Positions 2,243 to 17,464 of a stretch of DNA of 17,464 bases are shown in pieces. This stretch comes from Ignisphaera sp. (GTDB lineage: Archaea; Thermoproteota; Thermoprotei_A; Sulfolobales; Ignisphaeraceae). Position numbers and translations under genes: made by a program. Within the stretch, counting starts at the first letter, position 1, and each line of letters starts with the position of its first letter. The notes beneath the pieces were generated by a model. The model was not told the origin of the DNA. It worked only from the letters and a program-made list of their open reading frames with translations, and did no database searches. The DNA is taken from contig JAWAHS010000003.1 of the NCBI GenBank assembly GCA_038889075.1, positions 1-17,464 on the forward strand, read 5' to 3'.

Positions 2243-2279
2243 GTTTCTCACTCCGTCTATAGTTACCTTATAGCTGGGG

Positions 2280-2294
2280 TTTTTAAATGTTTTT
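2280..2294 (-). promoter_or_regulatory. Internal BRE/TATA promoter for the binding-protein gene
   Basis: Minus strand reads AAAAACA-TTTAAAAA, about 25 nt upstream of the SD/start region. Confidence 0.55.
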
Positions 2295-2319
2295 GCTTCT
2301 CCTTCCCCTCCTTATCTAT

Positions 2320-3222
2320 CTACTGTCTTAATCTGGGGTTTACATACTCTGATATACCCTGTGATAGTAGGAAGAATGCCAGGAATACCAATATTACACC
2401 TACAATTGGTGTAATATACCACCACCAGAGCCCTCTAAATAGCGCTGAGTAGTAAAGCGACCAGTAGATCATTGTACCAAGAGTATCCTTATCGAGTATC
2501 GATAGCCCTAATATTGACAGCCCTGTCTCCATACCTATGGAGTAGAGCACAGTATTGGTAAGATTTATGAGATGCCATGCGAGTAGATGTGGTATGATCT
2601 CTCTAAGTATTATCCTAGCCATAGAGTTTCCAGATAGAGATGATGTTAGTATGAATTCCCTCTCCCTCAGTGACAATACCATTGCACGTACCTGTCTGGC
2701 AGGCCAGCACCATGCTGTAATTGAAAATATTAACCCCATAAATGGTATTGGACTTCCCACTGCTGATATATGGGGCTTTAGTATCATTAACACTATTACG
2801 TATAGTGGTAGTGCTGGTATTACTATAATGGTGTCTGTTATAAACATTAGTACTCTATCAACTATGCCGCCTTTTAGCCCTGCGATAATACCTACAAGTA
2901 GCCCAATGTGTGGTGCTATCAGAGCTGTAACTATACCTATTACTAGTGAGTTCTTTATGGCATTTGTAAAGATCCAAAATACGCTTCTGCCATTAGCGGT
3001 TGTCCCAAATATGAGATCTATGCCTGTAGGTGTTGGTGGGAGACTCCTTGGGTAACTATACCAGTGTATATATTGTGGTGGTGCTGAAAAGGAAAGCAGA
3101 GCCAGTATCGTTACCCCTATAATTATGATAAAGCCTATTCGAAATTTTTTACTTACCCTCATGAGTATTGAAAATGAGTTTTTAATTGAGGTAATAACAC
3201 CTATAGGTATACCAACCAACAT
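2320..3222 (-). CDS. dppC: Opp/Dpp-family ABC permease (DppC-like)
   Basis: IFGTTANGRSVF, ARQVRAMVLSLREREFI (EAA-loop region), GLSILGL and WWWYITP motifs; SD GGGGTGA. Confidence 0.93.
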   Translation of the reverse strand: MLVGIPIGVITSIKNSFSILMRVSKKFRIGFIIIIGVTILALLSFSAPPQYIHWYSYPRSLPPTPTGIDLIFGTTANGRSVFWIFTNAIKNSLVIGIVTALIAPHIGLLVGIIAGLKGGIVDRVLMFITDTIIVIPALPLYVIVLMILKPHISAVGSPIPFMGLIFSITAWCWPARQVRAMVLSLREREFILTSSLSGNSMARIILREIIPHLLAWHLINLTNTVLYSIGMETGLSILGLSILDKDTLGTMIYWSLYYSALFRGLWWWYITPIVGVILVFLAFFLLSQGISEYVNPRLRQ

Positions 3223-3232
3223 CCTTCACCCC

Positions 3233-4246
3233 TTATCTATGCCTTACGCGCGGATCTATAAATGGATACACAATATCTAAAATATATGTTGCTATAGCTA
3301 CTGCTATTATTGTAAGTGAAAGCATACTTAGTGCTGTTGGATAATCTCCTGATAGAACAGCCCTATATGCAAGCATACCAATTCCAGGATATGTGAACAG
3401 TATTTCTGTAAGTAGTGCACCACCAAATATCCCTCCCAGAGACAGTCCTAGCGTTGTAACCTGCGGTAATAGTACATTCCTAAATACATAATTCTTTAAT
3501 ATGCGTGACTGTGACAGCCCTCTAAGCTCTGCATAGTAGACATAGTCCTCTGTCTGCACATTTAATGTTAGTGTGAATGAGCTTAGGAACCACCAGCCCA
3601 ACATACTAATCAATATTATCGATAGTGCTGGCAAGGTGGATCTATATAGCCACTCTCTAATCAGTATAAATATATCTGTAAAGACCGCTTCCCCAAAGCC
3701 GCCTACAAGTGGAAACACAGGTATTAGGTAGGCAAATAGAAATATGAGTGCTAATGCCATAATATAGTATGGTATGGGATACAGCGTTAGTGAAAGTGAT
3801 ACTAGAACCTTTGATATCCTCTTTTTCCTATTTATGCTTGCAAAAACGCCGAGTAAATTCCCTAAAATCCATGATAGTACCGTGGTGAATACCAGGAGAC
3901 TTACAGTCCAAGGCAATCTACGAATTATTAGTTCCCTCGCTGGAGTTGGATATGACATTATTGATGGTCCAAAGTCCAGTGTTAGAAACCTTCTAAGATA
4001 AGAGATGTACTGCTCGATGGGCGACCCCATTAAACCAAACACCTCATACAGGGTCTTTCTAAGCTCTTCCAATGCTTGAGGGTCGACAACTTGCCCCTGA
4101 ACTGTAAAGGATGCTACAATGTTTTCTACAGCTGAAACTGGCATTGCCCTCAGTAGTAGGAATGTAAATGTGAATGCTGTGAACAGTGTTGCCACCAGTA
4201 CAGCTGTTCTAATGGCTATGAAACGTGGTAGCGCCTTTGAAGCCAG
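3233..4246 (-). CDS. dppB: Opp/Dpp-family ABC permease (DppB-like); probable CTG start
   Basis: QYISYLRRFLTLDFGPS, EDYVYYAELRGLS, TEILFTYPGIG and YPFIDPRVR motifs. The track start (GTG 4195) cuts into the first helix. The frame stays open to a CTG at 4246, 6 nt after SD GGTGGTGA, giving MASKALPRFIAIRTAVLVATLF. Confidence 0.92.
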   Translation of the reverse strand: MASKALPRFIAIRTAVLVATLFTAFTFTFLLLRAMPVSAVENIVASFTVQGQVVDPQALEELRKTLYEVFGLMGSPIEQYISYLRRFLTLDFGPSIMSYPTPARELIIRRLPWTVSLLVFTTVLSWILGNLLGVFASINRKKRISKVLVSLSLTLYPIPYYIMALALIFLFAYLIPVFPLVGGFGEAVFTDIFILIREWLYRSTLPALSIILISMLGWWFLSSFTLTLNVQTEDYVYYAELRGLSQSRILKNYVFRNVLLPQVTTLGLSLGGIFGGALLTEILFTYPGIGMLAYRAVLSGDYPTALSMLSLTIIAVAIATYILDIVYPFIDPRVRHR

Positions 4247-4273
4247 GCTACATCACCACCTATATTAATCTAG

Positions 4274-4317
4274 TTTTACACGTTGTAAAAGTTTGAGAAA
4301 TCTTTTATAAATTTTCA
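4274..4317 (-). promoter_or_regulatory. Transporter operon promoter (BRE + TATA) with a palindromic operator candidate
   Basis: TTTATAAA at 4304-4311 is preceded on the minus strand by TGAAAA. The inverted repeat TTTTACA-cgt-TGTAAAA at 4274-4290 overlaps the expected TSS. Confidence 0.6.
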
Positions 4318-4447
4318 ACACAGTCAATATCTTTCAATTAGCAAACAAAATATTTACTAATCATATGAATTAACAAATGATTGGAATTAATGCAATGCAC
4401 ATTCATACTGTGGGTGGATATAATATTTAAAAGCAACATATGGCTAC

Positions 4448-5458
4448 CTAACGAGAGTGTGCTACGCGTTCTATCTCTTCTTTCAGTTCTTGGAGGAGTT
4501 GTTTATATATTGATATGCTCTTGGTCTGTAGTGGGTCTAGACCCCTTAGTTGTGCCAGCTTAATACTTGTAATGCCTATTACTAGTGAGCCGTAAAGAAA
4601 TCTTTCTATTACATTACCATTTAGCCTTAGTATATATGTGTCTATACCTAATCCCTTCAAATATTCGGCATAGAATTGAATGAGTTTATTCTCGTATGTT
4701 AGGTCGGAGTCTACAAGTAAAGCTTTATCTTTAAATTCTGCAGATTCCCATCCAACAATATCATTGTGGAAGAGTTCAGGTAGTATTTCCACCTTTACAG
4801 GAATTTTCGAATTCTCGTTAAGTTCATTTTTAATTCTTACCGCTAGTGCTGAGTACCTTAGTGTGGCGACAACTAGTGGCAATTTAGAGAGCTTTAGGAA
4901 GTTAAATAGCTCTCTGCTAGTTCTCTCAGCTTCATCCATATTTTTAAGCACCTCCAGTGCTTTCATTAGCTCTTCTCTTGCGATTAATTCGATACCACAA
5001 GTTGATAGTAGATTAAATGCTGCTACTAGCATTATTGGAAGTGCTGAACGTGGTGCTAGCCCACTCCTAATAGCTATATATGGTAGTCCATTTCTCTTTG
5101 CAAGTTCTATTAGTTCCCCACCAGAGGCTATAACGCCCACAGATTTTGTATGCTGTAGTGCTTTTTTAGTTGATAGTATCGTCTCCAACGTATTGCCAGA
5201 GTAGCTTATTGATAGCACGAATGTTGTACCATCAATTATATTACTTGGAATGTAAAAATCCTTATACACGTACACGGGGTATTCTGATTCAGCTGCAATT
5301 GACGCTATTATATCGCCTACAATACCGCTTCCACCCATACCCAGAATAACAATTCTCCTAATACCATCGAAAAATCTGGCATTTACGACGGTATAGCCTA
5401 GAGCTTCCAAACTATATTCATACCATTTCATATAGTGTTCGAGCATAACGATCCCCAC
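4448..5458 (-). CDS. Bifunctional phosphoglucose/phosphomannose isomerase (PGI/PMI, SIS domain)
   Basis: GMGGSGIVGD, SYSGNTLET, PRSALP and ELNENSK...PELFHNDIVGW motifs. The true start may be ATG 5446. Confidence 0.93.
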   Translation of the reverse strand: MGIVMLEHYMKWYEYSLEALGYTVVNARFFDGIRRIVILGMGGSGIVGDIIASIAAESEYPVYVYKDFYIPSNIIDGTTFVLSISYSGNTLETILSTKKALQHTKSVGVIASGGELIELAKRNGLPYIAIRSGLAPRSALPIMLVAAFNLLSTCGIELIAREELMKALEVLKNMDEAERTSRELFNFLKLSKLPLVVATLRYSALAVRIKNELNENSKIPVKVEILPELFHNDIVGWESAEFKDKALLVDSDLTYENKLIQFYAEYLKGLGIDTYILRLNGNVIERFLYGSLVIGITSIKLAQLRGLDPLQTKSISIYKQLLQELKEEIERVAHSR

Positions 5459-5608
5459 ATCTACCTACATACTCGTTTTCCGTATTTTAGAATGCGGTAC
5501 CTAGATCTCTATTATAAGCTTTTTATTTTAAGACTAAAATATGGTACCTAGATAGAACAAAGCTTTTAAACCAATCAGAAGTAAATACGTGACTGATGGT
5601 GTGGCTCT

Positions 5609-5815
5609 ATGCCTATATTTATTAACAGCGAAGATAGGTTTTTAGAGGTTGTAAAAAGAGCTCTAGAATGTAGAGTTAAAAGAATTGAAAAGAAGGGTAT
5701 AGCAAAGGTTAAAGCAAGAACAAAGAAATACCTCTATACATACATAACAACTCTAGACAAACTTGATGACCTACTAAATAAGCTAAAGAGCATATGTACT
5801 GTAAAAGAACTATAG
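5609..5815 (+). CDS. rpl38e: 50S ribosomal protein L38e
   Basis: 68-aa basic protein with MP..I....FLE, ECRVKR and KVKARTKKYLYT, matching the eL38 K-x-K-x-R-x-x-x-YLYT signature; TATA (TTTTAAA) and SD upstream. Confidence 0.9.
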   Translation: MPIFINSEDRFLEVVKRALECRVKRIEKKGIAKVKARTKKYLYTYITTLDKLDDLLNKLKSICTVKEL

Positions 5816-6194
5816 AGATGCTCTCATATCAAGTCATAAATATTATAAATGGAAATACCTCCATGGACCAAAATTGAGCAGCATATGTATTGGTCGATAA
5901 TAACCTATAGCAATACAGGAATCGACTTCTTACAACTTTCTTTCACCTTTGCACGCTAGCCATCATTTCCTACAACATTCAAATTCATTAGATATGCCAG
6001 TACCGGTCTCATAAATGTCACAACCATATCCCACCGCAGGTTCCTCGAGAACCGTGATTCAAGAGCTGACAATGAGAATAGACCTAAAACGTAGAAAGAC
6101 AGCTAAGGATAGGTTTCAAAGTGAATACACATTAAGGTGTGAAGCTAAAAAGATTAAATACTCTAAAGAGGTAGAAAGGTGTAGCGATCAGCCA

Positions 6195-6257
6195 ATGATG
6201 TATTACAAACCCCATCTGATGATCTCCAGCGTATATGATGATGGCTGGCGCTTCTGA
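6195..6257 (+). ncRNA. Atypical C/D-box sRNA candidate
   Basis: C ATGATGT 6195-6201, 14-nt guide, D' CTGA 6216-6219, long 15-nt spacer, C' ATGATGA 6235-6241, 12-nt guide, D CTGA 6254-6257. AAAAAGA-TTAAATA promoter-like motif near 6147-6160. No target recognised. Confidence 0.5.
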
Positions 6258-6599
6258 ACAGTAGGACTTTGTCTGATCCATAGATATACATCTGGAGCGT
6301 CCAACACCGCAATTGATAATTGAACTAGAAATCTACAATCTGTGATTTGCATATAGTTGTCGGAAAGCATGTTTTGCTCTATAATTACTTCATCTAGAAG
6401 TTGAGGTTATATATTGTATGTTGTACATATTGAAGGCGATTTATTGGTGTATCTCTTACTTCTATCTAGCTAGAATGTCTATCGTTTAACTCTAAATCTG
6501 TTAATGGTTGATAAAACTTATAAACTATATATATTACTAATACTGTATACAGTTAAAAAGTAATGTCATTGGTTTACCTATGGTGTTGAGGTGACCATA

Positions 6600-7286
6600 G
6601 TGATTAATGAAGATGATATAGCGCTACTGATTTCTACGGCATATAGTATACCATCACTACTCGATATGAATGTTTTACCAGTAATCGATAGGAGTCACGT
6701 TATTAAGATGGTTGAAATGTTCATGGACGAAGCAATTATGTATGTCAGAAATCTTGGTATAGAACCTCTATCCTCCAAATACATAAAGGAGGATATCTAT
6801 ATGCTATGTGACAATCTACTGAAATATATTGGCGAATTTGAGGGTGGTCTCATTCCACAAGCCGATATCCTTAAGCACATCTCTGGGTGTAGCACTATTG
6901 CCGTGCTCCATAGCCATCCCATACCAATACCTGTACCAACATTAGAAGACCTGATATCCTCTTCACAAATTGGCTACAATGTTGAGTGTGTCATAAGTAA
7001 ATCGTCAAGCTGCTTAGCTACAATGGTATGTATGGAGCCTCTTAAAACATGGCGGGATGTAATATCGGCTTTCTATGATATCAACGACTATTTTCTGGAA
7101 TCCGCTAGGTATATTGTTGTTGGAGATCACTCACAGATCGAATTTCTTCCCTTTCCCAACACAGATGAACAGAATAACATGATTCGCGTATTTATAGAGG
7201 TTCTTAGTAGATATGCAAAAATCTCTTATGCTAGGATAGATTTAGCGAACCGTATATACGATGTAGAGATATTTAATAGAGTTTAA
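6600..7286 (+). CDS. Divergent JAB/JAMM (MPN+) domain metalloprotein
   Basis: IAVLHSHPIPIPVPTLED fits H-x-H-x7-[S/T]-x2-D; upstream EFEGGLI could supply the catalytic Glu. SD GAGGTGA favours GTG 6600 over 6591. Confidence 0.7.
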   Translation: MINEDDIALLISTAYSIPSLLDMNVLPVIDRSHVIKMVEMFMDEAIMYVRNLGIEPLSSKYIKEDIYMLCDNLLKYIGEFEGGLIPQADILKHISGCSTIAVLHSHPIPIPVPTLEDLISSSQIGYNVECVISKSSSCLATMVCMEPLKTWRDVISAFYDINDYFLESARYIVVGDHSQIEFLPFPNTDEQNNMIRVFIEVLSRYAKISYARIDLANRIYDVEIFNRV

Positions 7287-7334
7287 TTATTCTCGAGAGA
7301 ACTGAGTATACTAGGATTTAGAAGGTACCATAAG

Positions 7335-8684
7335 ATGTCCATAGATATGGATAGGTATAAGATTGTAAAAGACGCTGTGCATGGCTATATAAAAATCTAC
7401 CACCATGAATTGCCAATAGTTGACTCCTATGCATTTCAGAGACTTAGAAGAATTAAACAGCTTTCTGTAGCAGACATAGTGTATCCAGGCGCTGTACATA
7501 CAAGGTTTCAACACTCGTTGGGTACAGCACATATAGCTGAAACTATGATTAGAGAACTGCTGAGGAAACTACGTCTAAAGCAATACGATATAGATAGATA
7601 CACAGTACTGATAAGACTACTAGCCCTCCTTCATGATGTAGGCCACGGCCCCTTTAGCCATCTATTCGAAGACTGTATTCTATTACCAAAGGGACTAACT
7701 CATGAAGATGTAGGGGCATTGATAGTTATGAATATAGATGACCTCTCCTCTAGAATAGATTCTATATTAAGTGCCTACGGTTACAGCACCAGCCATATAG
7801 CTAAGGCATTGAAAAGCAAAGGTGTAGATGAATGGCCCTTTACATCAAATATTACAGGAGAGACGAGTGAAAAAGCACTTTTCTACATAATTAAGGGCAT
7901 CTTTAGTGCAGATATTATCGATTATCTTCTTCGCGATTCCTACTATACCGGCGCTGGATATGGTGATAACATTGATTGGTATAGAATCTCCTACTATCTA
8001 TACATATACAGTGATAAACTGGTAATTGACTATAGGGCTCTCGATGTTTTTGAGCAGATGATTATAGCTAGGCTTCACATGTTTTCAACAGTATACTATC
8101 ATAAGACCGTTAGAGCTGCCTATAAATTTCTAGGTGATATTCTCAAAAAGATAGATGAGTTAAAGCTTCTAGATTTTGAAAAGCATCTAAATAGTATCGA
8201 AAGATATATTGAGCTAGACGACTATTCTGTACTATTAAATGATAGGGTTAGGGATCTATCAGAGGTTCGTGAGTTCCTATCAAGGAGAATTCCATATAAA
8301 GCTGTAGCCGAACACCGGATCCTTCTACCCAATAATGTGAAATCACTAGGATACCTATTTGATGTAGGTAAGAAAATCATTGAGGAATCTCTTGAAGAGA
8401 GCTTAAGATCACGAGGTATAGATGTCTCTAGGGATAGGGATTTCTTCGTCGATACCCCCAAGCTATCTCTAAATCCCATGCTGACCACAGATGATGCATA
8501 CATTATGCTTGAAGGAGGATACATGCAGAGGAGAAGGGTATATGAATTACCGTGGATAAATATACCTAAAGCCGTAGCTGTGGTTAGAGTCTATATTAGA
8601 AGAACCCTCCTAGATAAGTCATCTATTATACGGGAAATATTCAATAGCATAGTAGAGGGTGATAATCTAAGGTCGTTCTACTAG
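7335..8684 (+). CDS. HD-domain phosphohydrolase (COG1078, SAMHD1/dNTP triphosphohydrolase-like)
   Basis: DAVHGYI, FQRLRRIKQL, VYPGAVHTRFQHSLG, LLHDVGHGPFSH, ADIIDYLLRDSYYTG and MFSTVYYHKTVR motifs. Confidence 0.93.
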   Translation: MSIDMDRYKIVKDAVHGYIKIYHHELPIVDSYAFQRLRRIKQLSVADIVYPGAVHTRFQHSLGTAHIAETMIRELLRKLRLKQYDIDRYTVLIRLLALLHDVGHGPFSHLFEDCILLPKGLTHEDVGALIVMNIDDLSSRIDSILSAYGYSTSHIAKALKSKGVDEWPFTSNITGETSEKALFYIIKGIFSADIIDYLLRDSYYTGAGYGDNIDWYRISYYLYIYSDKLVIDYRALDVFEQMIIARLHMFSTVYYHKTVRAAYKFLGDILKKIDELKLLDFEKHLNSIERYIELDDYSVLLNDRVRDLSEVREFLSRRIPYKAVAEHRILLPNNVKSLGYLFDVGKKIIEESLEESLRSRGIDVSRDRDFFVDTPKLSLNPMLTTDDAYIMLEGGYMQRRRVYELPWINIPKAVAVVRVYIRRTLLDKSSIIREIFNSIVEGDNLRSFY

Positions 8685-9340
8685 TACTTCCTCACATAAC
8701 TGTCGTATAATTCCATCAGCTTCTCAACGTCCTGAGGAAATAGCTCGTATATCTTGCCTCTATCTATATCAAAGATGAGTACGCTGTGTATGTGTGCCTT
8801 CATTAAATAGTCTATATCACCGTTATCTAAAGGAGATATTTCCCTTACACTAGAGATCAGATCAAGCAATTTTCTTCTAGATCTACCCTCTACAGGCTTC
8901 ACCAACTCTATTGGTATTAATGGTACAGAGCCGTAAGGATATGCAAATACTGCTGCTTTAATTCCACTCTTCACTATCTGGATCACCTTCCTTATATGAC
9001 GGGCTAGTATGTACTTCGTCCTATTCAATATAAAATTCGATGGTACGGTATAGAAATCTACTTCAATACATATATTAAAATCCCCTTTCTGCGCATATAC
9101 ATCACATTTAGCTATGCCCACGCTCTCCTCTATCGATATATAGCTGTAGCCACAGTTAGATAGATAGTAGTAGATTAGGAGCTCCGCCAGGATGTGATTT
9201 ATGGGAATGCCCTTTTCATTTACAAGTTTAATCGCCTTACGGACAAGGTCTTCCAGGTGCTTCACCCCCATTCTATTCAATAGCTGTAGTATTTGGGTTA
9301 GATGCATTTCGCTGCCCAACAATGGATCACCATACTGCAT
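8681..9340 (-). CDS. Conserved archaeal hypothetical protein with a PD-(D/E)XK-like fold
   Basis: NHILAE helix, then IEESVG..CDVYAQKG...CIEVD; the catalytic Lys is absent. Its stop overlaps the HD gene stop (CTAG). Confidence 0.7.
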   Translation of the reverse strand: MQYGDPLLGSEMHLTQILQLLNRMGVKHLEDLVRKAIKLVNEKGIPINHILAELLIYYYLSNCGYSYISIEESVGIAKCDVYAQKGDFNICIEVDFYTVPSNFILNRTKYILARHIRKVIQIVKSGIKAAVFAYPYGSVPLIPIELVKPVEGRSRRKLLDLISSVREISPLDNGDIDYLMKAHIHSVLIFDIDRGKIYELFPQDVEKLMELYDSYVRKY

Positions 9341-9411
9341 TAAGCCATATTAAGGTCTATTTTATGAAAAGTAATCTGTATTTTAATTAAAAAATGCTAT
9401 AGGTTCAAGCT

Positions 9412-10275
9412 ATGGATGGTGAAATAGAGTATCTAATTGCATTTTCAGTAAATGATGCAGCTGGTAGGGGCATGGCTATCTCGCTCGCAAACATGGCTAA
9501 ATGTGAAGACGTTACCCATAGATCTAGGGATCCTAAGATTAGGGCACTCCATCTATGTGACGACTTGAGGGCAGTTTTAGCAGGCTTTGACGAGGATGTG
9601 GTGTTCTTTGATTTTATTGAAGAATTTAGAGATGTAAAATACTTCGTTATACTATCTAGACACAGTTCTCTAACAGGTATGCCAACCCTAACAACACATG
9701 TACCTGGAAATCCATGGGGTAAAAACGATTTTGGTGGAAAGCCATGGGAAATACCGCCTGCAAACCCTGTATTGATGTGGTATTTTCTGAAGGGGCTGAT
9801 TAATCGACGGGCTAGAGATGGCTTACTCGAGTTTAGAGTAAGCTATGAGGTTACACACCATGGTCCTACCTCGATCACGAGACCCATAACATTTATCGAA
9901 ATTGGAAGTAGTGAAAGAGAGTGGAATATGTTGAATGTACAGAGAGCTGTGGCCTCAGTAGTTATTGAAGGAATTGAAAATACCTTAGATGGTGGTTCGA
10001 CAAAGCTATGCACAGTAAGCATAGGTTTTGGAGGTCCTCACTATGCCCCATTATTTACGAGAAGGGCTATCGAATACGGCGAATGCTATGGCCATATAAT
10101 ACCCAACTATGTAATTAAGGAACTCGACTTAGATAGGATAAAATTCATTACAGTTAGAGCAATCGAATCTACACCTGGTGTAGAACGTATTGTAATAGAG
10201 AAAGTAAAAAGTGAAATTAGAAAAGCAATAGCTACGATTGCTGAGGAAAGGAACATTGAGGTTATATCATATTAG
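9412..10275 (+). CDS. dtdA: D-aminoacyl-tRNA deacylase (DTD2/GEK1 family)
   Basis: SRHSS..GMPTLTTHVPGN, YEVTHHGP, FIEIGS and GFGGPHYAP motifs. Confidence 0.95.
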   Translation: MDGEIEYLIAFSVNDAAGRGMAISLANMAKCEDVTHRSRDPKIRALHLCDDLRAVLAGFDEDVVFFDFIEEFRDVKYFVILSRHSSLTGMPTLTTHVPGNPWGKNDFGGKPWEIPPANPVLMWYFLKGLINRRARDGLLEFRVSYEVTHHGPTSITRPITFIEIGSSEREWNMLNVQRAVASVVIEGIENTLDGGSTKLCTVSIGFGGPHYAPLFTRRAIEYGECYGHIIPNYVIKELDLDRIKFITVRAIESTPGVERIVIEKVKSEIRKAIATIAEERNIEVISY

Positions 10276-10294
10276 TGTTCCTCACAGCCTGCCC

Positions 10295-11566
10295 CTATAG
10301 AGCTATTTTCTCACCATTTCTAGGCGCTATGAATTCTATACCCAGTTCCTCCTTTATACGATACCCTAGATTATAGATAGAATCCTCATTCCCGTGAACT
10401 AGCACTACCTTTTCTAAATTTCTTGCATTTTTTGCAATATTAAACAGATCTGAGGCCCCTGCATGGCTTGAAAAATCAAACCAGAATACCCTAGCCCTTA
10501 CATGAGGGCCTCCACTCTCTAGCGATCCCTCTACCAATAGTCTTCTTCCCGGTGTTGTTGGTGCTTGGTAGCTTACCAACACAATTGCATTTTTTGGCTC
10601 ATTCCACAGTCTCTTTACATAGTACTGGACGGGTCCTCCCTTAAGCATACCAGCAGGTGTAACTATTATGCTACCAGGTTCCTTACATATCCTCTTCCTC
10701 ATATCACTACCTTTCACAGATGTGAAGGTCCTGTGTATTCTTTCAAGAAGATCGTATTTATTGATGAATTCTCTATGCCTTAGGAAAAGTTCGAGAATGT
10801 CCTTAGCCATACCATCGTAGTATACATTAGAATAGGGCATTCTCTCAGCTAATATAGCGAGAATTTCCTGTGATCTTGCCAGTGAGAATGCTGGTATCAG
10901 TACTATACCTCCATCCTCAATTATACCCTTGACCGTTTCGATAAATAGATCCTCAACCCTCTGTCTATCGGGATGATCATACATTCCATACGTTGACTCC
11001 ATCACGAGGATGTTGGTATCAATTCTACCTATATCTAAACCTTTGGTCAGCCTTGTATCTATGGTATTTATATCTCCTGTATACAGTATGCTACGTTCAC
11101 CGTCTACTAGCCTATACATAGTTGCCCCTGGAATATGTCCTGAGTTGTGCACCTCAACATATGTATTGTCTATCCAAAAACTTTCCCTTAATCCCACAGT
11201 TTTTGCATTCTCAAGCATTGTCATAAGTTCAGGGTACTCGAATGGTAGATAGTAACCTGAAAGTCTAAGCATATCCTCTATCATAATTCTACCTAGTTCA
11301 AATGTAAGCCCACTCATTATTGCCGTGGGTCTTGCAGAGGTGTATAGAAATGGTGTGGCTCCAATATGATCGAGATGAGCATGTGTAATTAGAATAGCTG
11401 TAATCCTTGATGGTGGTATTGTTAGAGGTAGTAAGGGCTTATCATCCTCGTCAAAAGAAACACCGTAATCCAGTAGGATATTGGTGCCATTTCTAGCATT
11501 ACTGATTAAAATGGCCGCTCTACCAACTTCTCTACCTGCTCCTAATACTGTTAACTCTGTACCCAT
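10295..11566 (-). CDS. MBL-fold beta-CASP ribonuclease (KH-less aCPSF2/aCPSF1b type)
   Basis: LGAGREVGR, THAHLDH, GHIPG, YTGD, MESTYG, PAFSLARSQE, FSSHA and LVHG motifs. Confidence 0.93.
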   Translation of the reverse strand: MGTELTVLGAGREVGRAAILISNARNGTNILLDYGVSFDEDDKPLLPLTIPPSRITAILITHAHLDHIGATPFLYTSARPTAIMSGLTFELGRIMIEDMLRLSGYYLPFEYPELMTMLENAKTVGLRESFWIDNTYVEVHNSGHIPGATMYRLVDGERSILYTGDINTIDTRLTKGLDIGRIDTNILVMESTYGMYDHPDRQRVEDLFIETVKGIIEDGGIVLIPAFSLARSQEILAILAERMPYSNVYYDGMAKDILELFLRHREFINKYDLLERIHRTFTSVKGSDMRKRICKEPGSIIVTPAGMLKGGPVQYYVKRLWNEPKNAIVLVSYQAPTTPGRRLLVEGSLESGGPHVRARVFWFDFSSHAGASDLFNIAKNARNLEKVVLVHGNEDSIYNLGYRIKEELGIEFIAPRNGEKIAL

Positions 11567-11651
11567 CTACCTTTCAACCACTATCACTTATATTCTAGCT
11601 ATACGCTACTAATAATTCTGCTGTTAAAGGCTTATCTATAGTGAGAAAAAT

Positions 11652-12026
11652 ATGTTCCCTATAAATCCTCGTGAATTACAGAAACAATTAAAGCAGCTTA
11701 AAAAGATGGGCATGAAGATAGAGCAGCTAGAGAATGTAGATGAAGTTGTAATACAGCTAGAAGGTAAAAAGCTTATTCTTGAAAAACCTGATGTGATGGC
11801 ACTCGAATTCGCTTCGCAAAAGGTATTCTATATAGTACCTAAATCAATTAGGGAGGAGATAGGGGGTATTAAAGCCGAAACGCCAGCTACATCAATTAAG
11901 GAAGACGATATTTCATTTATTGCTGAATTCACTGGGGTGAGCCGTGACGTTGCTAGAGAAGCATTAATTAGAGCTGGAGGGGATATTGCTAAAGCCATTG
12001 AAATTCTTCAGAGCGAAAAGAAATAG
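11652..12026 (+). CDS. nac: Nascent polypeptide-associated complex protein (aNAC)
   Basis: NPRELQ..LKKMGMK NAC domain; C-terminal UBA-like EDDISFIAEFTGVSRDVAREALIRAGGDIAKAI. Confidence 0.95.
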   Translation: MFPINPRELQKQLKQLKKMGMKIEQLENVDEVVIQLEGKKLILEKPDVMALEFASQKVFYIVPKSIREEIGGIKAETPATSIKEDDISFIAEFTGVSRDVAREALIRAGGDIAKAIEILQSEKK

Positions 12027-12084
12027 CAGTAGGTAGCAATGCTATGCTATTACTATGTTACCCACTGTCACGCAATTTTATAGT

Positions 12085-12417
12085 TTATAGAATTGACTCT
12101 TTTATACATGGGCATAGGGTCTTTAGAACAGTGTAGACTGTATCTGTACCAGTGTAGCTATACTTAGCCTGTAGAAAGGCTTTACCTATATCGATGAGTG
12201 TAGAAATACCTTGACATCTTTTACCAATCTCCATAGCTAGGTCTGGAGTAGATATAAGTCTTGAAATTACGATTGCTAGATAGCGTATAATGTAGTAGAA
12301 ACTCCTGTCACTAGCAACAGTAGGAGAGTCTTGTCCTATATAACTTATACAGAAGTCTACATATATTTTTAATCTTTTAATTTCATCTATGCGGCAGGTC
12401 TTCGACTCCACTACCAT
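12085..12417 (-). CDS. Hypothetical protein
   Basis: 110-aa ATG ORF that fills the gap between nac and the divergent membrane-protein gene; no family recognised. Confidence 0.65.
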   Translation of the reverse strand: MVVESKTCRIDEIKRLKIYVDFCISYIGQDSPTVASDRSFYYIIRYLAIVISRLISTPDLAMEIGKRCQGISTLIDIGKAFLQAKYSYTGTDTVYTVLKTLCPCIKESIL

Positions 12418-12484
12418 CTTTATCTTAGTTAGTTAAAGTTTAAAGCTAGATTATAAGTATTCTGTAGCTGCAGGTGTATACACG

Positions 12485-13051
12485 ATGAACAGTTTTAATT
12501 CTTGGCTAAGACAGTTAATCGAATCTCTTCCACTAGCCTTAGCAATCGTAATATCATCGTTAGCCCTTCTAGTATCTATAGCAATGTATGTAGAACCTCC
12601 AGATGCGCTTAGAGATGCAATAGAAGATGAAATTAGGAACATATCTACAGCTCTTACAAATACCTCATTTATAGAAAGGGTGTACATCATCTATACAAGA
12701 AATGCTCTCGTCAATACGCTCTTCATACTACCATTCTTTATAAACGTAGCCATTTACATATCCACCATGGTTACAACTGCTTGGGCTCTCGGCACATCTG
12801 CACTAAACTTAGAAATCGCTACTGGCGTTCCAAAATACATAAGCATATTACTGTTGATGCTTATGCCTCATACATATTTAGAGCTATTCTCATACTCTCT
12901 ATCCATTATAGTATCGCTTAAATTAACGTTAAGCTTTATCAAGAGAAGAGTAGATAAGGTGATTCTATACAATTCCATAGCCACCATCATAGTGTCCTAC
13001 ATAATACTACTGCTATCTGCTGTAATCGAAACAGTGCTAATCAGCCTATAA
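12485..13051 (+). CDS. SpoIIM/DUF95-like integral membrane protein
   Basis: Several TM helices; IIYTRNALV and LLMLMPHTYLEL match the I..NN and LPHG..EL signatures. Confidence 0.8.
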   Translation: MNSFNSWLRQLIESLPLALAIVISSLALLVSIAMYVEPPDALRDAIEDEIRNISTALTNTSFIERVYIIYTRNALVNTLFILPFFINVAIYISTMVTTAWALGTSALNLEIATGVPKYISILLLMLMPHTYLELFSYSLSIIVSLKLTLSFIKRRVDKVILYNSIATIIVSYIILLLSAVIETVLISL

Positions 13052-13090
13052 TTCTACCTCTAATTCTATCTACAGACCGGATACCCATTT

Positions 13091-13138
13091 TCAGCGAGAG
13101 GATACGATCATCATCTCTCAGAGTCTCTACCTCATCAC
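13091..13138 (-). ncRNA. C/D-box methylation-guide sRNA
   Basis: Minus strand: C GTGATGA - GGTAGAGACT - D' CTGA - gag - C' ATGATGA - TCGTATCCTCTCG - D CTGA. All four boxes are consensus. TTTATCTA TATA-like motif at 13163-13170. Confidence 0.92.
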
Positions 13139-13221
13139 ATTAGTAGCTATGTTCCCCGTTTTAGATAAACTATAAGAAGCTAATTAACATTAATTACACA
13201 TATGACGGAATTCGTTAAAGG

Positions 13222-13269
13222 ATGATGAATTCAAGACGGTATGATAGGTGATTATAACTCCCCATCTGA
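13222..13269 (+). ncRNA. C/D-box methylation-guide sRNA
   Basis: C ATGATGA - ATTCAAGACGGT - D' ATGA - tag - C' GTGATTA - TAACTCCCCAT - D CTGA, with canonical spacing. The guides are complementary to adjacent conserved 23S segments (CCGUCUUGAA, GGGGAGUU; recalled). Confidence 0.88.
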
Positions 13270-13468
13270 TACTATAAAAAAAAACATTAATTTCCAGCTA
13301 GTAGCAGCTTGACGCTTTACGTTACCATGTAATTAGAAGATTTATTCAATTTAACAAGATATGATTCGATGTTACTAGGTTGCAATATGTTTTGGACAAT
13401 AGATCATATCACATCTATTCAAAATTTTTATCTACAGTATTAAAGGTTGAGTAGTTCGGGTCCAAATT

Positions 13469-14296
13469 ATGAAAAAACCATGTGGGATAGTTGCTATACT
13501 GACAGATTTTGGATGCAACGACTACTACGTAGCTGCTATGAAGGGTGTTATACTAGATGTTTGTAGAGATGTAGAAATTGTTGATATAACCCATTCTATA
13601 GAGAATTTCAACTTGTATCAAGCTGCCTTTACATTATATGCTTCACATAGATATTTTCCTGAAGGAACAGTCTTTCTAGCAGTTGTTGATCCTGGTGTAG
13701 GCAGTAGCAGGATGGCTATTCTCATAGTTTCGAAAAGGTATTACTTCATAGGACCTGATAACGGTATTCTGACCCCAGCTGCAAAATACGATGGAATTGA
13801 AAAGGTTTATATGATAGAGAATGACGTATACTTTAGAAAGCCTGTCTCAAAATCATTCCATGGAAGGGATATATTTGCACCCGTTGCTGCAAGAATAGCA
13901 TGTGGTCTAGAACCTTTTCGTGTTGGAAGAGAGCTGGATGTTAATAAGCTACATAATATAAATATTGAGCTGTTCATGGAGAAGAGCGACGACTGTGTAG
14001 TGCTAAAGGTAATATACATAGATAGATTTGGTAATGTAATGCTTTCCCATAATTTTAGAAATGTTATAGAGACTCTCAATGTAGATGTAGGAGATGATGT
14101 ATATGTATATGCAGGTGGTGATCGTATCCTAAAGGCAAAAATTTTAGAGGTATTCTCACACGGAGCACCCAATGATCTCATACTCTACGAGAATAGCCTA
14201 CAGCTTGCAGAACTAGCTGTTAATCTGAGTTCTGCAAAGAGTCTGTTAAGTGTTAATAATGATGACAGTATTAGGATATGTAAATATGGATATTGA
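13469..14296 (+). CDS. S-adenosyl-L-methionine hydroxide adenosyltransferase (DUF62, chlorinase/fluorinase family)
   Basis: LTDFG, MKGVI, VDITH, AVVDPGVGS, GPDNG, SFHGRDIFAP, YIDRFGN and ELAVN motifs. Confidence 0.95.
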   Translation: MKKPCGIVAILTDFGCNDYYVAAMKGVILDVCRDVEIVDITHSIENFNLYQAAFTLYASHRYFPEGTVFLAVVDPGVGSSRMAILIVSKRYYFIGPDNGILTPAAKYDGIEKVYMIENDVYFRKPVSKSFHGRDIFAPVAARIACGLEPFRVGRELDVNKLHNINIELFMEKSDDCVVLKVIYIDRFGNVMLSHNFRNVIETLNVDVGDDVYVYAGGDRILKAKILEVFSHGAPNDLILYENSLQLAELAVNLSSAKSLLSVNNDDSIRICKYGY

Positions 14297-14309
14297 TATT
14301 ATGGAAGTA

Positions 14310-14387
14310 CCGGGGGTGACCCGCCCCGTGTACACGTAGCCCCGGGACAACGGGGTTTATTTACACGGGCAACCAGGGTTGCCACAC
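14310..14387. other. GC-rich multi-hairpin element (structured ncRNA or IS200/IS605-type end remnant)
   Basis: Stems CCCGTGTA/TACACGGG (14325-32/14362-69), AGCCCCG/CGGGGTT (14338-44/14351-57) and GGCAAC/GTTGCC (14368-73/14378-83). A minus-strand TTTATATA at 14406-14413 points into the element. Confidence 0.55.
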
Positions 14388-14473
14388 TTTCTAACTTTTT
14401 ACAAGTATATAAACTTAATCATCTACTACAGCATCCACATCCCATTAATCTTGGACAATTCTATTAAATTCAT

Positions 14474-14527
14474 TCAGCATGGGTTGGAGCATATCATCCT
14501 TTGTCAAGCATTGGAGTCACTCATCAT
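14474..14527 (-). ncRNA. C/D-box methylation-guide sRNA
   Basis: Minus strand: C ATGATGA - GTGACTCCAATGC - D' TTGA - caaagg - C' ATGATAT - GCTCCAACCCATG - D CTGA. The guides match neighbouring 16S segments AUUGGAGUCA and GGG(G)UGGAGC (recalled). TATA TTTATATT at 14551-14558. Confidence 0.87.
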
Positions 14528-14641
14528 CATAGTACAGAGAGTTAAACCTGAATATAAATCTCTGTACTGGTAGAGCCACTTACCACAAAATGGTATTCGC
14601 CGGCCACGCAGCACAATCTAAACCCAAAATGAATAAAAGAA

Positions 14642-15031
14642 TTATCTACTGGTTATCTGTGTTAGAAGCCTATGTCCATTACCTATGAAGATGGGCGTTT
14701 TAAATACAAATAGTTCATCGTTTTTATAAATTACAACTCCAACCAAATTATTAATCTTTTTCAAAATCCATGGATACAGCCTATACGGTACGACTACATA
14801 TAGATAGTCTGCTAACTCTAATCTCTTCTCAATTTGATCGATTATCCTAGATTTAGCTCTAACCTTAACCTCAAATATATGTACTAAAGGTCTTTGAAGC
14901 TCTTTAGAAGGCTCTATAGCCATAACATCGAATTCTAACCCCATATACTTAAAATTGCTATAAACATCATAACCTAAGGCGAGAAGCTTTTTAGTGAGGC
15001 GCTCAATGATTACAGACTCGCTATACAGCAT
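14642..15031 (-). CDS. Small PD-(D/E)XK nuclease-superfamily protein
   Basis: SE..I..LTKKL...GYDV, EFDVMAI, HIFEVK and DQI......ADYLYVVVP; complete E-D-ExK-Q catalytic set. Confidence 0.8.
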   Translation of the reverse strand: MLYSESVIIERLTKKLLALGYDVYSNFKYMGLEFDVMAIEPSKELQRPLVHIFEVKVRAKSRIIDQIEKRLELADYLYVVVPYRLYPWILKKINNLVGVVIYKNDELFVFKTPIFIGNGHRLLTQITSR

Positions 15032-15255
15032 TCAACACCTTAACCTTAGAAGAGGCTGTGGAAATATAATACACGCAGTTAGACAGCCCTTAAACTAATT
15101 CAATGATTAATAAATATATTTAAAAATATACTACAAGTAATACCATCATAAAATAAAGGACTGTAGTATATGGAGGCATCTATATAAATAGAAAAGAAGG
15201 CTATGCGCCTTATAATAATTAAACCTATCCCCACCCAGATAAATACGGGGCCAAA

Positions 15256-15387
15256 CCTACAGGATGTGCATATAGAACCGGGTAACCCGATAGGTCGAAG
15301 GGGTAGAACCTAAGGGTGATAAAGCCCTTAGGCTAATACCCCTCAGGCTTACCGGAATTATCCGGTTCTATATGCACATCCTGTAGG
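15256..15387. mobile_element. Long inverted-repeat element: MITE-like (IS630-type TA boundary) and/or rod-shaped structured RNA
   Basis: Perfect 26-bp IR CCTACAGGATGTGCATATAGAACCGG at 15256-15281 and 15362-15387; the interior is also self-complementary. TA at 15258-59 and 15384-85 reconstruct an empty site CCTAGG. Confidence 0.65.
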
Positions 15388-15421
15388 GGCTAAGCCTTCT
15401 TGACATCTTAACAGTTCATCT

Positions 15422-15964
15422 CTACATTAATGTATATTCCTGGCCTATCTTATAACCCTGCTTCTCCAGAAGTTTCGTACATTTCCGGCAAAACTTCATA
15501 GTCTTACTATCGACTTCAGCAACACTATTGCTAAAGCTCATAACGCATTCTCTCTTAAAGCAGTGTTTCAATCCGAGTATATGGCCTAGTTCATGTATAA
15601 CTTCTTTCTTAACCCTTTCTATGAATACTATACCCGAAGCTGCTACTGCTAACCTTGGTAGAAATACTGCTGCTGTTTTCAAATGAGGTATTGCAAGTCC
15701 AAATACAAAGTTTAGTCCTTTTACATAGGCGTCGAATTCAGCTAGTATGATTGCTATTGACACGAAGTTCCTGTATCTATATACATGGTAAACGAATGCG
15801 TCTGCCAAGTACTGCATCCTTTTATCGTCAAATATATCGATCGGAGGCTCTATATAGTGGTCTACGATCTCTACATTAGCTGAGAAGACGTTGTGAAGAC
15901 ACGATGCTACCTCTTCCAGTATCTTTCTTTCAACATTTCGCGTTCTAAAGAGCTGTATCTGCAT
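15422..15964 (-). CDS. amzA: Archaemetzincin Zn-dependent metalloprotease
   Basis: DAYVKGLNFVFGLA, HELGHILGLKHC...CVMSFSNS..EVD.K...FCRKC motifs. Confidence 0.95.
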   Translation of the reverse strand: MQIQLFRTRNVERKILEEVASCLHNVFSANVEIVDHYIEPPIDIFDDKRMQYLADAFVYHVYRYRNFVSIAIILAEFDAYVKGLNFVFGLAIPHLKTAAVFLPRLAVAASGIVFIERVKKEVIHELGHILGLKHCFKRECVMSFSNSVAEVDSKTMKFCRKCTKLLEKQGYKIGQEYTLM

Positions 15965-16312
15965 CTATCAATACCTCTCCATAGGAAATTGGTTTAAGTT
16001 ATCCTTCAGACCATTCATATAGCTCAACGATACAATAGGACGGTGATCTATTTATATTTTTAGTTAACCATCTAAAGAATAGTACTCTGACTCATTCCCT
16101 ATCTTCTAAGCTTCTCCATATCCTTCAGAGTATACCTTCAGCTATAAACACCGGTTTCTCAAATCTCATTAGGAACTATAAATAGAGAGATTTGCAGAAG
16201 CTTCTACAGAGAGATGAGAAACGTGTTATAGTATTTTCAATTCAAACACTATAAATCGCGTTATAGGCAGTAAAGAGCCTTGGTATCCCATACATGCATC
16301 TGCCATAAGTCC

Positions 16313-16990
16313 CTACAATCTGCTTTTGATTAAGCCTGGGATAGAGTATTTCCTTTCTATTATTTTTACAAATTCCGTTAGTACTATAGAAGCAACGATG
16401 TATATGAAAGCTAGTACAACGTACACCTCTAAGTAGAGAAATGTTCTGCTTCCTATTGACTTGCCTATGTACATAAGTTCTGGTGCTGTTACAAAGTAGG
16501 CGATAGACGAATATTTGAATAGGTATATAGCTTCATTAGCTAGAGCTGGTATCGCTATCCTAATAGCCTGTGGTAGGATAACTATCCATATCGTTCTAAA
16601 TCTCGTCAATCCTATCGATAATGCAGATTCGAATTGCGAATATGGTATTGAACTTATTGACGATCTTATATATTCTGACTGGTATACGGATGAATTGATC
16701 GATATAGCTATTATGGAGGCTGTCACAGGGTCTAACAATATGCCTAGCTCAGGTAGTGCATAGTATACGAAAAATAGCTGTACTATCATTGGTGTGCCCC
16801 GTATTACTTCAACAAACACGGTAAGTACTATTCTAACCCATCTATTGCTATATATCCTTAGTAGAGCAATGATTGTACCCAGGGTTAAACCAATGATATA
16901 TGATGCTGTGGTGATTATGATTGTATATCTGAGTCCCAGTAATATGGAATACCCATAGTTGTTTAAAATGTAGAATATACCCTGCAACAT
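16313..16990 (-). CDS. Polar amino-acid ABC transporter permease (HisM/GlnP family)
   Basis: FVEVIRGTPMIVQLFFVYYALP, SEYIRSSI..IP..QFESALSIGL and ILPQAIR motifs. Confidence 0.95.
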   Translation of the reverse strand: MLQGIFYILNNYGYSILLGLRYTIIITTASYIIGLTLGTIIALLRIYSNRWVRIVLTVFVEVIRGTPMIVQLFFVYYALPELGILLDPVTASIIAISINSSVYQSEYIRSSISSIPYSQFESALSIGLTRFRTIWIVILPQAIRIAIPALANEAIYLFKYSSIAYFVTAPELMYIGKSIGSRTFLYLEVYVVLAFIYIVASIVLTEFVKIIERKYSIPGLIKSRL

Positions 16991-16991
16991 T

Positions 16992-17464
16992 CTAACCAGC
17001 TCTAGATTGTATATCCAATGAATACAGGTACCACATTCTCTCCATAAATCTGCGTATCCTTTCGTTTTTAGGACTCAATAATATCTGTTCCGGTGAACCC
17101 CTCTCAACTATGGTTCCCCCATCCATAAACATTACCTCGTGGGCAACCTTTACAGCAAAACCAAGTTCGTGTGTAACAACAATCATAGTCATACCATTCC
17201 TCGAGAGCCTTTCCATAACATTCAAAACCTCCCATATAAGCTCAGGATCTAGAGCTGAGGTGGGTTCATCGAATAGTATTATCTTTGGGTCCATTGCAAT
17301 AGCTCTAGCAATTGCTACACGTTGTTGCTGTCCACCTGATAATTGGACAGGGTACTTTCTCCAAAGATCCTCAGTAATACCAACCGATAGTAGTGCCTCT
17401 TCTGCTTTTCTCATAGCCTCTTCCCTCGGTAGCTTCTTTACCTTTACCAGACCAAGTAGAACGT
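16992..17464 (-). CDS. Polar amino-acid ABC transporter ATP-binding protein (GlnQ-like), 5' end outside the window
   Basis: LSGGQQQRVAIARA, ILFDEPTSALDPE and VVTHE motifs. The frame stays open to the window edge (VLLGLVKVKKLPREEAM). Confidence 0.95.
   Translation of the reverse strand, partial: VLLGLVKVKKLPREEAMRKAEEALLSVGITEDLWRKYPVQLSGGQQQRVAIARAIAMDPKIILFDEPTSALDPELIWEVLNVMERLSRNGMTMIVVTHELGFAVKVAHEVMFMDGGTIVERGSPEQILLSPKNERIRRFMERMWYLYSLDIQSRAG

Follow-up and report, generated by a model that had tools for sequence, protein, structure and literature searches.

Which RNA, if any, is matured at a splicing site that belongs to no recognisable host gene? The question is raised by a stretch of 17,464 nt from Ignisphaera sp. 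(Archaea, Thermoproteota; NCBI GenBank assembly GCA_038889075.1, contig JAWAHS010000003.1, positions 1 to 17,464 of the forward strand; hereafter the window), which carries at 15247-15396 a long rod-shaped hairpin closed by a motif of the bulge-helix-bulge (BHB) kind, i.e., the geometry cut by the archaeal tRNA splicing endonuclease EndA. The rod is a conserved structured RNA gene under RNA-level selection on one strand. Its favoured interpretation, to which a probability of roughly 60 % is assigned, is that of a non-coding RNA gene in its own right, located on the + strand, the product of which is the rod itself, cut out by EndA and circularised by RtcB. A small nuclease-like gene, ORF129 (129 aa, 14642-15031, - strand), lies divergently next to it and represents the candidate partner.

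On the + strand, positions 15240-15405 fold into a single rod with a minimum free energy (MFE) of -101.3 kcal/mol, as compared to a mean of -47.8 kcal/mol for shuffled sequences (z = -12.8), and none of 200 shuffles was equally stable. The rod described in the first-pass annotation of this DNA, made from the sequence alone, is thereby confirmed. The intron-side helix h' (15256-15387) comprises 54 base pairs with small internal loops, and the two 30-nt arms 15256-15285 and 15358-15387 are 97 % complementary. For the apical loop, given as 8 nt in that annotation, a reading as 6 nt (15318-15323, closed by the pair U15317-G15324) is also possible. The - strand of the rod region folds nearly equally well (MFE of -94.6 kcal/mol, z = -12.4). 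A supposed excess of G-U pairs on the + strand (four versus one on the - strand) was not reproduced: the MFE folds of the window rod alone carry five G-U pairs on either strand, so that this single-sequence hint fails and a strand signal is present only in the comparative data. The rod is the longest inverted repeat of the 1.95-Mb genome, and sequence comparison with its own genome recovered the self match only, i.e., no second copy. The second and third longest inverted repeats (C3:90464-90531 and C10:65-102) have arms of about 19 and 16 bp, respectively, and no BHB base. A strain variant of the 5' arm (15244-15297) is found on a metagenome contig (run X8); it differs by five substitutions, one of which converts an A-U pair to G-U, and by a 2-nt insertion, the partner arm not being recovered.

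Homologues, proposed earlier as a means of checking the element, do exist: rods were identified in 31 genomes of two families, 18 in family f1 (Ignisphaera and relatives) and 13 in family f3 (uncultured "Desulfurococcaceae"). BLAST of the element against 40 relatives yielded two orthologues at 73 % identity; the match in genome G001 is also a real orthologue, and three further short matches proved on inspection to lie in coding sequence and were discarded. Folding after a search with the apical 18-mer added rods in 10 further genomes of the genus. Seven more f1 rods, four other genera among them, and likewise the 13 f3 rods were reached via the neighbouring ORF129. This apical stem-loop (15312-15329) is the sole part of the rod conserved in sequence within the genus, being identical in six genomes (window included) and carrying at most two mismatches in five more genomes with a rod; the apical loop sequence differs in other genera. 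When the 18-mer pattern was applied to 325 genomes, the folded matches outside the genus, among the matches listed, were not rods. An RNA model (R1) finds the f1 rods and one f3 rod and misses the rods of the g65 type, and thus cannot show absence elsewhere; its 16-bit match in genome G269 does not correspond to a rod.

The stems of different species have essentially no sequence relationship to each other, each of them still forming a near-perfect hairpin, and the predicted excised length amounts to 131-160 nt for the f1 rods and to 97-147 nt for those of f3. Comparison of arm against arm in 29 rods gave 1535 Watson-Crick pairs, 49 transversion mismatches, 51 gaps and 170 G-U pairs on the proposed RNA strand versus 41 A-C oppositions (corresponding to G-U on the other strand), the related genomes in this tally not being independent of each other. 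The G-U:A-C split is 108:21 in f1 and 62:20 in f3. The strand had been fixed before counting, for f1 on the basis of the apex motif and for f3 from the first bulge letter; genomes G213 and G214 were left out of the tally, and the BHB motifs of both were seen separately. Since selection on duplex or cruciform DNA does not yield an asymmetry of G-U over A-C, the tally argues for selection on RNA.

The base of the rod shows the layout given in the first-pass annotation at the very same coordinates. The central 4-bp helix H is formed by 15249-15252 and 15388-15391 (GGCC and GGCT, G15249-C15252 pairing with G15388-U15391), followed by a 3-nt bulge on each strand (AAA at 15253-15255, AAG at 15392-15394) and by the outer, exon-side helix h with its two G-C pairs (G15247-G15248 with C15395-C15396). 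The canonical hBHBh' site is defined by two bulges of 3 nt each, by the 4-bp helix separating them and by outer helices with a minimum of two Watson-Crick pairs (PMC6379350; PMC7714728). With two G-C pairs on the exon side and at least 26 pairs on the intron side, the window conforms to this definition, which bears out the proposed BHB geometry. The same bulge letters occur in the pre-23S processing stem of this genome, where GUAC-AAA on one strand faces GUAC-AAG on the other.

The two bulges and the 4-bp helix are maintained by compensatory changes while the rod sequence turns over. Across the 18 f1 sequences, pairing of the central helix extends to 72 of 72 cells; the first position of this helix is G-U in nine sequences, U-A in three, and A-U, C-G and G-C in two each. 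Over 19 tested base pairs of these sequences, 92.7 % of the cells are paired as compared to 83.3 % in shuffles, ten of the 19 pairs carrying double changes, and not one of 500 shuffles reached any of the five covariation measures. Sliding the 3' partner by one column as a control lowers pairing to 57-73 %. The 5' bulge has 3 nt in 16 of the 18 sequences and the 3' bulge in all 18; the two positions of the outer helix are paired in 17 and 16 of 18, respectively, with G-C at both in 12. For the 13 f3 sequences, RNAalifold returned the same BHB layout without a given structure, the 4-bp central helix being present in each of them and the exon-side helix comprising 4 bp that covary themselves (e.g., one position is A-U in six and G-C in five sequences). 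A copy retaining the inverted repeat and lacking the BHB flanks, which had been named beforehand as contrary evidence, was not found.

The predicted cut position derives from other substrates of the same genome. The introns of its tRNA-Met, tRNA-Tyr and tRNA-Pro, as bounded by ARAGORN and read by inspection, fit a 4-bp helix with cleavage after bulge nucleotide 2. Applied to the rod, this rule predicts cuts at 15254|15255 and 15393|15394 and an excised RNA of 139 nt (15255-15393, + strand), which upon ligation would form a rod circle with a 7-nt junction loop. Folded as a circle, the 139-nt product keeps the rod (MFE of -91.1 kcal/mol, 7-nt junction loop). The genome encodes both the EndA catalytic subunit and RtcB. 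ARAGORN also reports a tRNA-Thr with a 1247-nt intron (C19:11990-13331), which overlaps the 23S rRNA gene (9891-13080) in its 5' part and is probably an artefact; the 16S-23S spacer on the same contig consists partly of N.

Is there a gene from which such an intron would be removed? ARAGORN detects no tRNA gene in the window, Rfam yields no match at gathering score, and relaxing the latter to E up to 5 within 15150-15480 produces only one chance miRNA match (16 bits, E = 1.4). No open reading frame of at least 50 aa crosses the element. The description of the locus as neither tRNA nor rRNA thus holds, and the flanks form no tRNA, rRNA or reading frame to which an intron could belong; outside the outer helix they are not conserved. 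Orthologues point to a promoter-like box. An A/T-rich box following a G/C-rich stretch lies at -33 to -41 from the central helix, as the first such box, in 13 of the 18 f1 genomes, corresponding in the window to a putative BRE/TATA box (transcription factor B recognition element plus TATA; 15205-15222, + strand) with an A/T-rich 8-mer about 40 nt before the central helix. From the two TATA-like motifs noted earlier, the orthologues accordingly favour the one in the box at about 15209-15222 and not that at 15181-90. Downstream, 27 of 29 orthologues have a short T-rich tract that begins no more than 10 nt beyond the 3' bulge and may represent an archaeal terminator (15397-15401 in the window, + strand), the pattern being permissive and the evidence weak. 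Promoter, transcription start and terminator of the rod gene are thus predicted from motif positions. If the box is the TATA element, leader and trailer would measure only about 10-20 nt each, and the excised piece would be the product.

Two further motifs occupy the region between ORF129 and the rod gene. The 7-mer TAATACC (15138-15144 in the window, + strand) is half of an inverted pair: within 400 nt upstream of the RNA gene, TAATACC is found in 12 and its reverse complement GGTATTA in 11 of the 18 f1 genomes (loci L049-L066), usually around position -110 and around -55 to -80 relative to the central helix. One might speculate on an operator function of this pair. A small terminator-like hairpin with a T-run on the - strand (15197-15211) overlaps the promoter-like box of the rod gene.

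The following pathway is therefore proposed for the favoured interpretation. A short transcript, beginning some 10 nt upstream of 15247 and ending a little beyond 15396, would fold into a long hairpin with a canonical BHB base; EndA would cut after the second nucleotide of each bulge; and RtcB would join the ends of the 139-nt piece to a circular, almost fully double-stranded rod, bounded by the conserved apical loop on one side and by the 7-nt junction loop on the other. Since the leftover "exons" would measure only about 15-20 nt each and be part of no known gene, the excised "intron" would be the product. The individual steps differ in certainty. That the rod is a transcribed structured RNA appears very probable, and cleavage of the transcript by EndA is likely. 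A circular product, assumed by analogy with other excised pieces, has somewhat better than even chances.

A handle on function is provided by ORF129, which adjoins the rod in all 31 rod genomes, albeit in three layouts. All 18 f1 genomes show a divergent arrangement with about 200-300 nt between the aligned ORF129 N-terminus and the RNA 5' end. Among the f3 genomes, four (G038, G205, G221, G222) have the RNA in tandem about 100-120 nt upstream of ORF129, and in the nine g65 genomes both are convergent, the RNA 3' end abutting the ORF129 stop. The ORF129 profile matches 13 of 52 f3 genomes, and an RNA model built from the f3 rods hits exactly these 13, leaving the remaining 39 without a match; the 13 RNA matches are true by construction, so that the information resides in the 39 misses, among which diverged rods could have been overlooked. 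Presence and absence of rod and ORF129 agree across genomes, with one clear exception in f1 (genome G022, see below). No rods were found near weak ORF129-like matches in other families (G037, G024, G091, G133, G139, G125) or near the second one in G005. Such weaker second matches occur at G022:C8:2089-2367 (with an in-frame TAG) and at G005:C52:9946-10218, the latter with no rod nearby. Near the weak match in G133 (locus L130, contig C26), positions ~2270-2330 contain a perfect palindrome of about 26 bp, which has no BHB base and is probably unrelated.

The ORF129 protein is confidently modelled by AlphaFold (pLDDT, i.e., predicted local distance difference test, of 92). Foldseek assigns the model to PDB entry 3dnx as best match (E = 2.5e-5), followed by SfsA, XisH, PaqCI and NucS/EndoMS, with Hjc ranking lower. 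Residues E5, E33, D35, E54 and K56 are invariant in 19 ORF129 sequences. With core fold and D...(D/E)xK motif both present in this confident model, ORF129 is predicted to be a member of the PD-(D/E)xK nuclease superfamily. Beyond this, it resembles little: only 19 clusters among 5.8 billion proteins match, all of them unnamed or "hypothetical", and Pfam holds no family for it. Searches of Pfam, NCBIfam, PADLOC, PHROGs, PDB sequences and the ESM Atlas returned only weak matches to generic nucleases or to proteins of unknown function, including weak UPF0102 matches in 8 of the 19 members. Defence-system models are not matched either, except for one of the 19 members with an unrelated model (E = 0.005). 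An assignment as Hjc resolvase was rejected, as just 2 of the 19 members match Pfam Hjc (best E = 0.019) and TM-scores (template modelling scores) to Hjc are 0.37-0.41; moreover, a separate canonical Hjc gene is located on contig C6.

In view of this persistent linkage, ORF129 is the foremost candidate for a partner of the rod, and the odds of a functional partnership fall slightly short of even. In the rod itself, only the two ends and the approximate length are conserved, which is consistent with a protein-binding dumbbell. The RNA might then serve ORF129 as bound cofactor, scaffold or regulator. More tentatively, EndA and RtcB could be regarded as the biogenesis machinery of an "intron-only" gene with the circular dumbbell as obligate partner of ORF129 (scaffold, ruler, inhibitor or specificity factor), a proposal that has to be considered doubtful. 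If true, an "intron-only" RNA and a lineage-specific PD-(D/E)xK nuclease would constitute a two-component RNA-protein system of a kind undescribed in archaea.

Logan contigs from one metatranscriptome and three metagenomes all end at the hairpin, whether RNA or DNA, and report no joint, so that they speak neither for nor against transcription, cleavage at the bulges or back-splicing. Several observations weigh against maturation of the rod as an EndA-processed RNA. By G-U count, the two strands of the window are indistinguishable, and the four most similar g65 rods display no clear G-U excess (4:5, 3:2, 4:5 and one 14:1). Some rods are perfect palindromes (e.g., about 64 pairs without an unpaired base in genome G021), which would also fit a homogenisation of the arms at the DNA level. 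The f1 outer helix has just 2-3 bp and in two genomes 1 bp, and a 4-nt 5' bulge is required in two genomes (G009 and G003). Genome G022 (79 % complete) has ORF129 and lacks a rod within 1.5 kb. Since the RNA models were constructed from their own hits, absence elsewhere is weak evidence, and the nuclease fold of the modelled ORF129 suggests a DNA substrate.

Part of these observations would be accommodated by a structured hairpin RNA that is not processed by EndA, its base being the site of another factor, most obviously ORF129, and its mature form a linear hairpin. The constant adjacency of ORF129 with an intact nuclease motif, the missing junction evidence and the short outer helix of f1 are in line with such a role. 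However, the geometry of the motif is exactly that required by EndA and equals the pre-23S site of the same genome including both bulge sequences; PD-(D/E)xK enzymes of the size of ORF129 are mostly DNases; and a protein site alone gives no reason for a purely covarying 4-bp helix between 3-nt bulges. This explanation is therefore considered unlikely.

Alternatively, the palindrome could act at the DNA level as a cruciform or duplex site of ORF129, e.g., in recombination, in replication or as part of a selfish nuclease-plus-site cassette, the RNA-like features being incidental. Near-perfect palindromes such as that of G021, the near-equal folding of both strands in the window, the occurrence of either orientation relative to ORF129 and the resemblance of the latter to DNA-acting nucleases (Hjc-like resolvases at lower rank) all agree with a DNA element. 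The asymmetry of 170 G-U versus 41 A-C, on the other hand, cannot come from duplex or cruciform selection. Neither would it account for a promoter-like box and a T-tract on one strand at fixed distances, and no function in DNA is known for 3-nt bulges that are staggered about a 4-bp helix with covariation. Moreover, the rod is single-copy and vertically inherited rather than mobile. A pure DNA function is thus improbable.

The variable layouts bear on a third possibility, namely a true intron with functional ligated exons, e.g., a rod removed from the 5' leader of the ORF129 mRNA such that splicing regulates ORF129. In the four genomes with tandem order (G038, G205, G221, G222), the rod indeed resides on the same strand about 100-120 nt upstream of ORF129, and a BHB in a 5' untranslated region (UTR) is on record (PMC7714728). 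The RNA is divergent in all 18 f1 and convergent in nine f3 genomes, however, and there cannot belong to the ORF129 mRNA; flanks beyond the outer helix are not conserved, and even where the order is tandem, a T-rich tract comes after the 3' bulge. A leader intron is accordingly very improbable.

Besides ORF129, the rod is neighboured by genes for an archaemetzincin-family metalloprotease (15422-15964, - strand), beyond the stop of which it lies by 26 nt on the opposite strand, and for an S-adenosylmethionine (SAM) hydroxide adenosyltransferase (13469-14296, + strand). Beyond close relatives, the rod does not stay linked to either of them: the archaemetzincin gene has the inverse orientation in genomes G003 and G004 and was not found in the loci of four others. 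An ordinary by-product, i.e., a MITE-like repeat (miniature inverted-repeat transposable element) or a bidirectional intergenic terminator hairpin, might be suspected from a long inverted repeat 26 nt past a stop codon, and has next to no likelihood in view of one copy per genome, a covarying base motif and conservation over two families while flanking genes except ORF129 change; archaeal terminators are not known to need 60-bp hairpins. A MITE or other repeated palindromic element was also rejected on the basis of the genome itself, which contains one copy, its next-longest inverted repeats being unrelated and devoid of the base motif. Directly beyond the end of the window, a run of about 100 N occupies C3 17464-17563; many similar N runs in the assembly indicate that the contigs are scaffolds.

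The EndA-matured RNA gene proposed here may finally be compared to known systems. Archaeal tRNA and rRNA introns, which are known to circularise once excised, share with it the hBHBh' motif and the predicted enzymes, EndA and RtcB, and in Sulfolobus, tRNA introns and rRNA intermediates were found as circles by circRNA-seq (PMC3326292). In contrast to these introns, the rod has no host gene, its "exons" would be a leader and trailer of few nucleotides, and, equipped with a promoter-like box of its own, it is conserved as one unit. The processing stems of pre-16S and pre-23S rRNA likewise combine a long helix with a BHB and give rise to circular excision intermediates, the 23S stem of the same genome even sharing the 4-bp helix and the AAA/AAG bulges. 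The rod differs from them in enclosing a 6-8-nt loop rather than an rRNA, in lacking sequence similarity and in not being linked to the rRNA operon (contig C19).

The permuted signal recognition particle (SRP) RNA of Thermoproteus is reported to become functional via BHB cleavage and circularisation (PMC4731332). It is a functional RNA other than tRNA and rRNA, and maturation of the rod would similarly need EndA and circular ligation; the SRP RNA, however, is a universal RNA in rearranged form, whereas the rod matches no known RNA family. In Haloferax volcanii, the BHB in the 5' UTR of HVO_1309 is an EndA substrate yielding a circular excised piece (PMC7714728). In contrast to this leader, the rod represents a separate gene, divergent or convergent to its neighbour in 27 of the 31 genomes. 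Stable circles are reportedly also produced by the tRNA splicing machinery of metazoans (PMC4536317); unlike the rod, these tRNA intronic circular RNAs are by-products of animal tRNA genes.

Two further systems are reminiscent of the rod in shape or gene order. Viroid-like RNAs are small, highly base-paired rod circles. The rod is chromosomal, single-copy and vertically inherited in contrast to these, without signal for a ribozyme or replicase and with Rfam silent. Type III toxin-antitoxin systems consist of an RNA antitoxin and a nuclease toxin, the gene for the toxin being preceded by RNA repeats in a tandem array. A small nuclease gene linked to a structured RNA gene, and in four genomes the tandem order with a T-tract, are points of likeness. 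Assignment to this type was nevertheless rejected, since there is a single hairpin without repeat array and in variable orientation; in addition, the fold of ORF129 is a different one, and within the genus the locus is stable and not mobile. In the literature on BHB circular RNAs nothing resembling the rod was found, coverage being incomplete and supplements lying outside the search such that a prior description is possible; for Ignisphaera together with bulge-helix-bulge, only the paper on the cbf5 intron was retrieved.

The known archaeal EndA substrates are parts of larger genes, namely tRNAs, rRNAs, few mRNAs and the permuted SRP RNA. If the favoured interpretation is true, the splicing pathway would serve, in addition, to make an RNA that stands alone and is probably circular. 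As a BHB cassette of hyperthermophilic origin that is natural, compact and very stable, the rod may, furthermore, interest circular-RNA engineers. Its strict co-inheritance with a small nuclease-like protein offers a testable handle on function, which is mostly lacking for archaeal circular RNAs. From the known BHB substrates, the rod is thus set apart as a site with no host gene and no known RNA family, along with which a dedicated protein gene travels.

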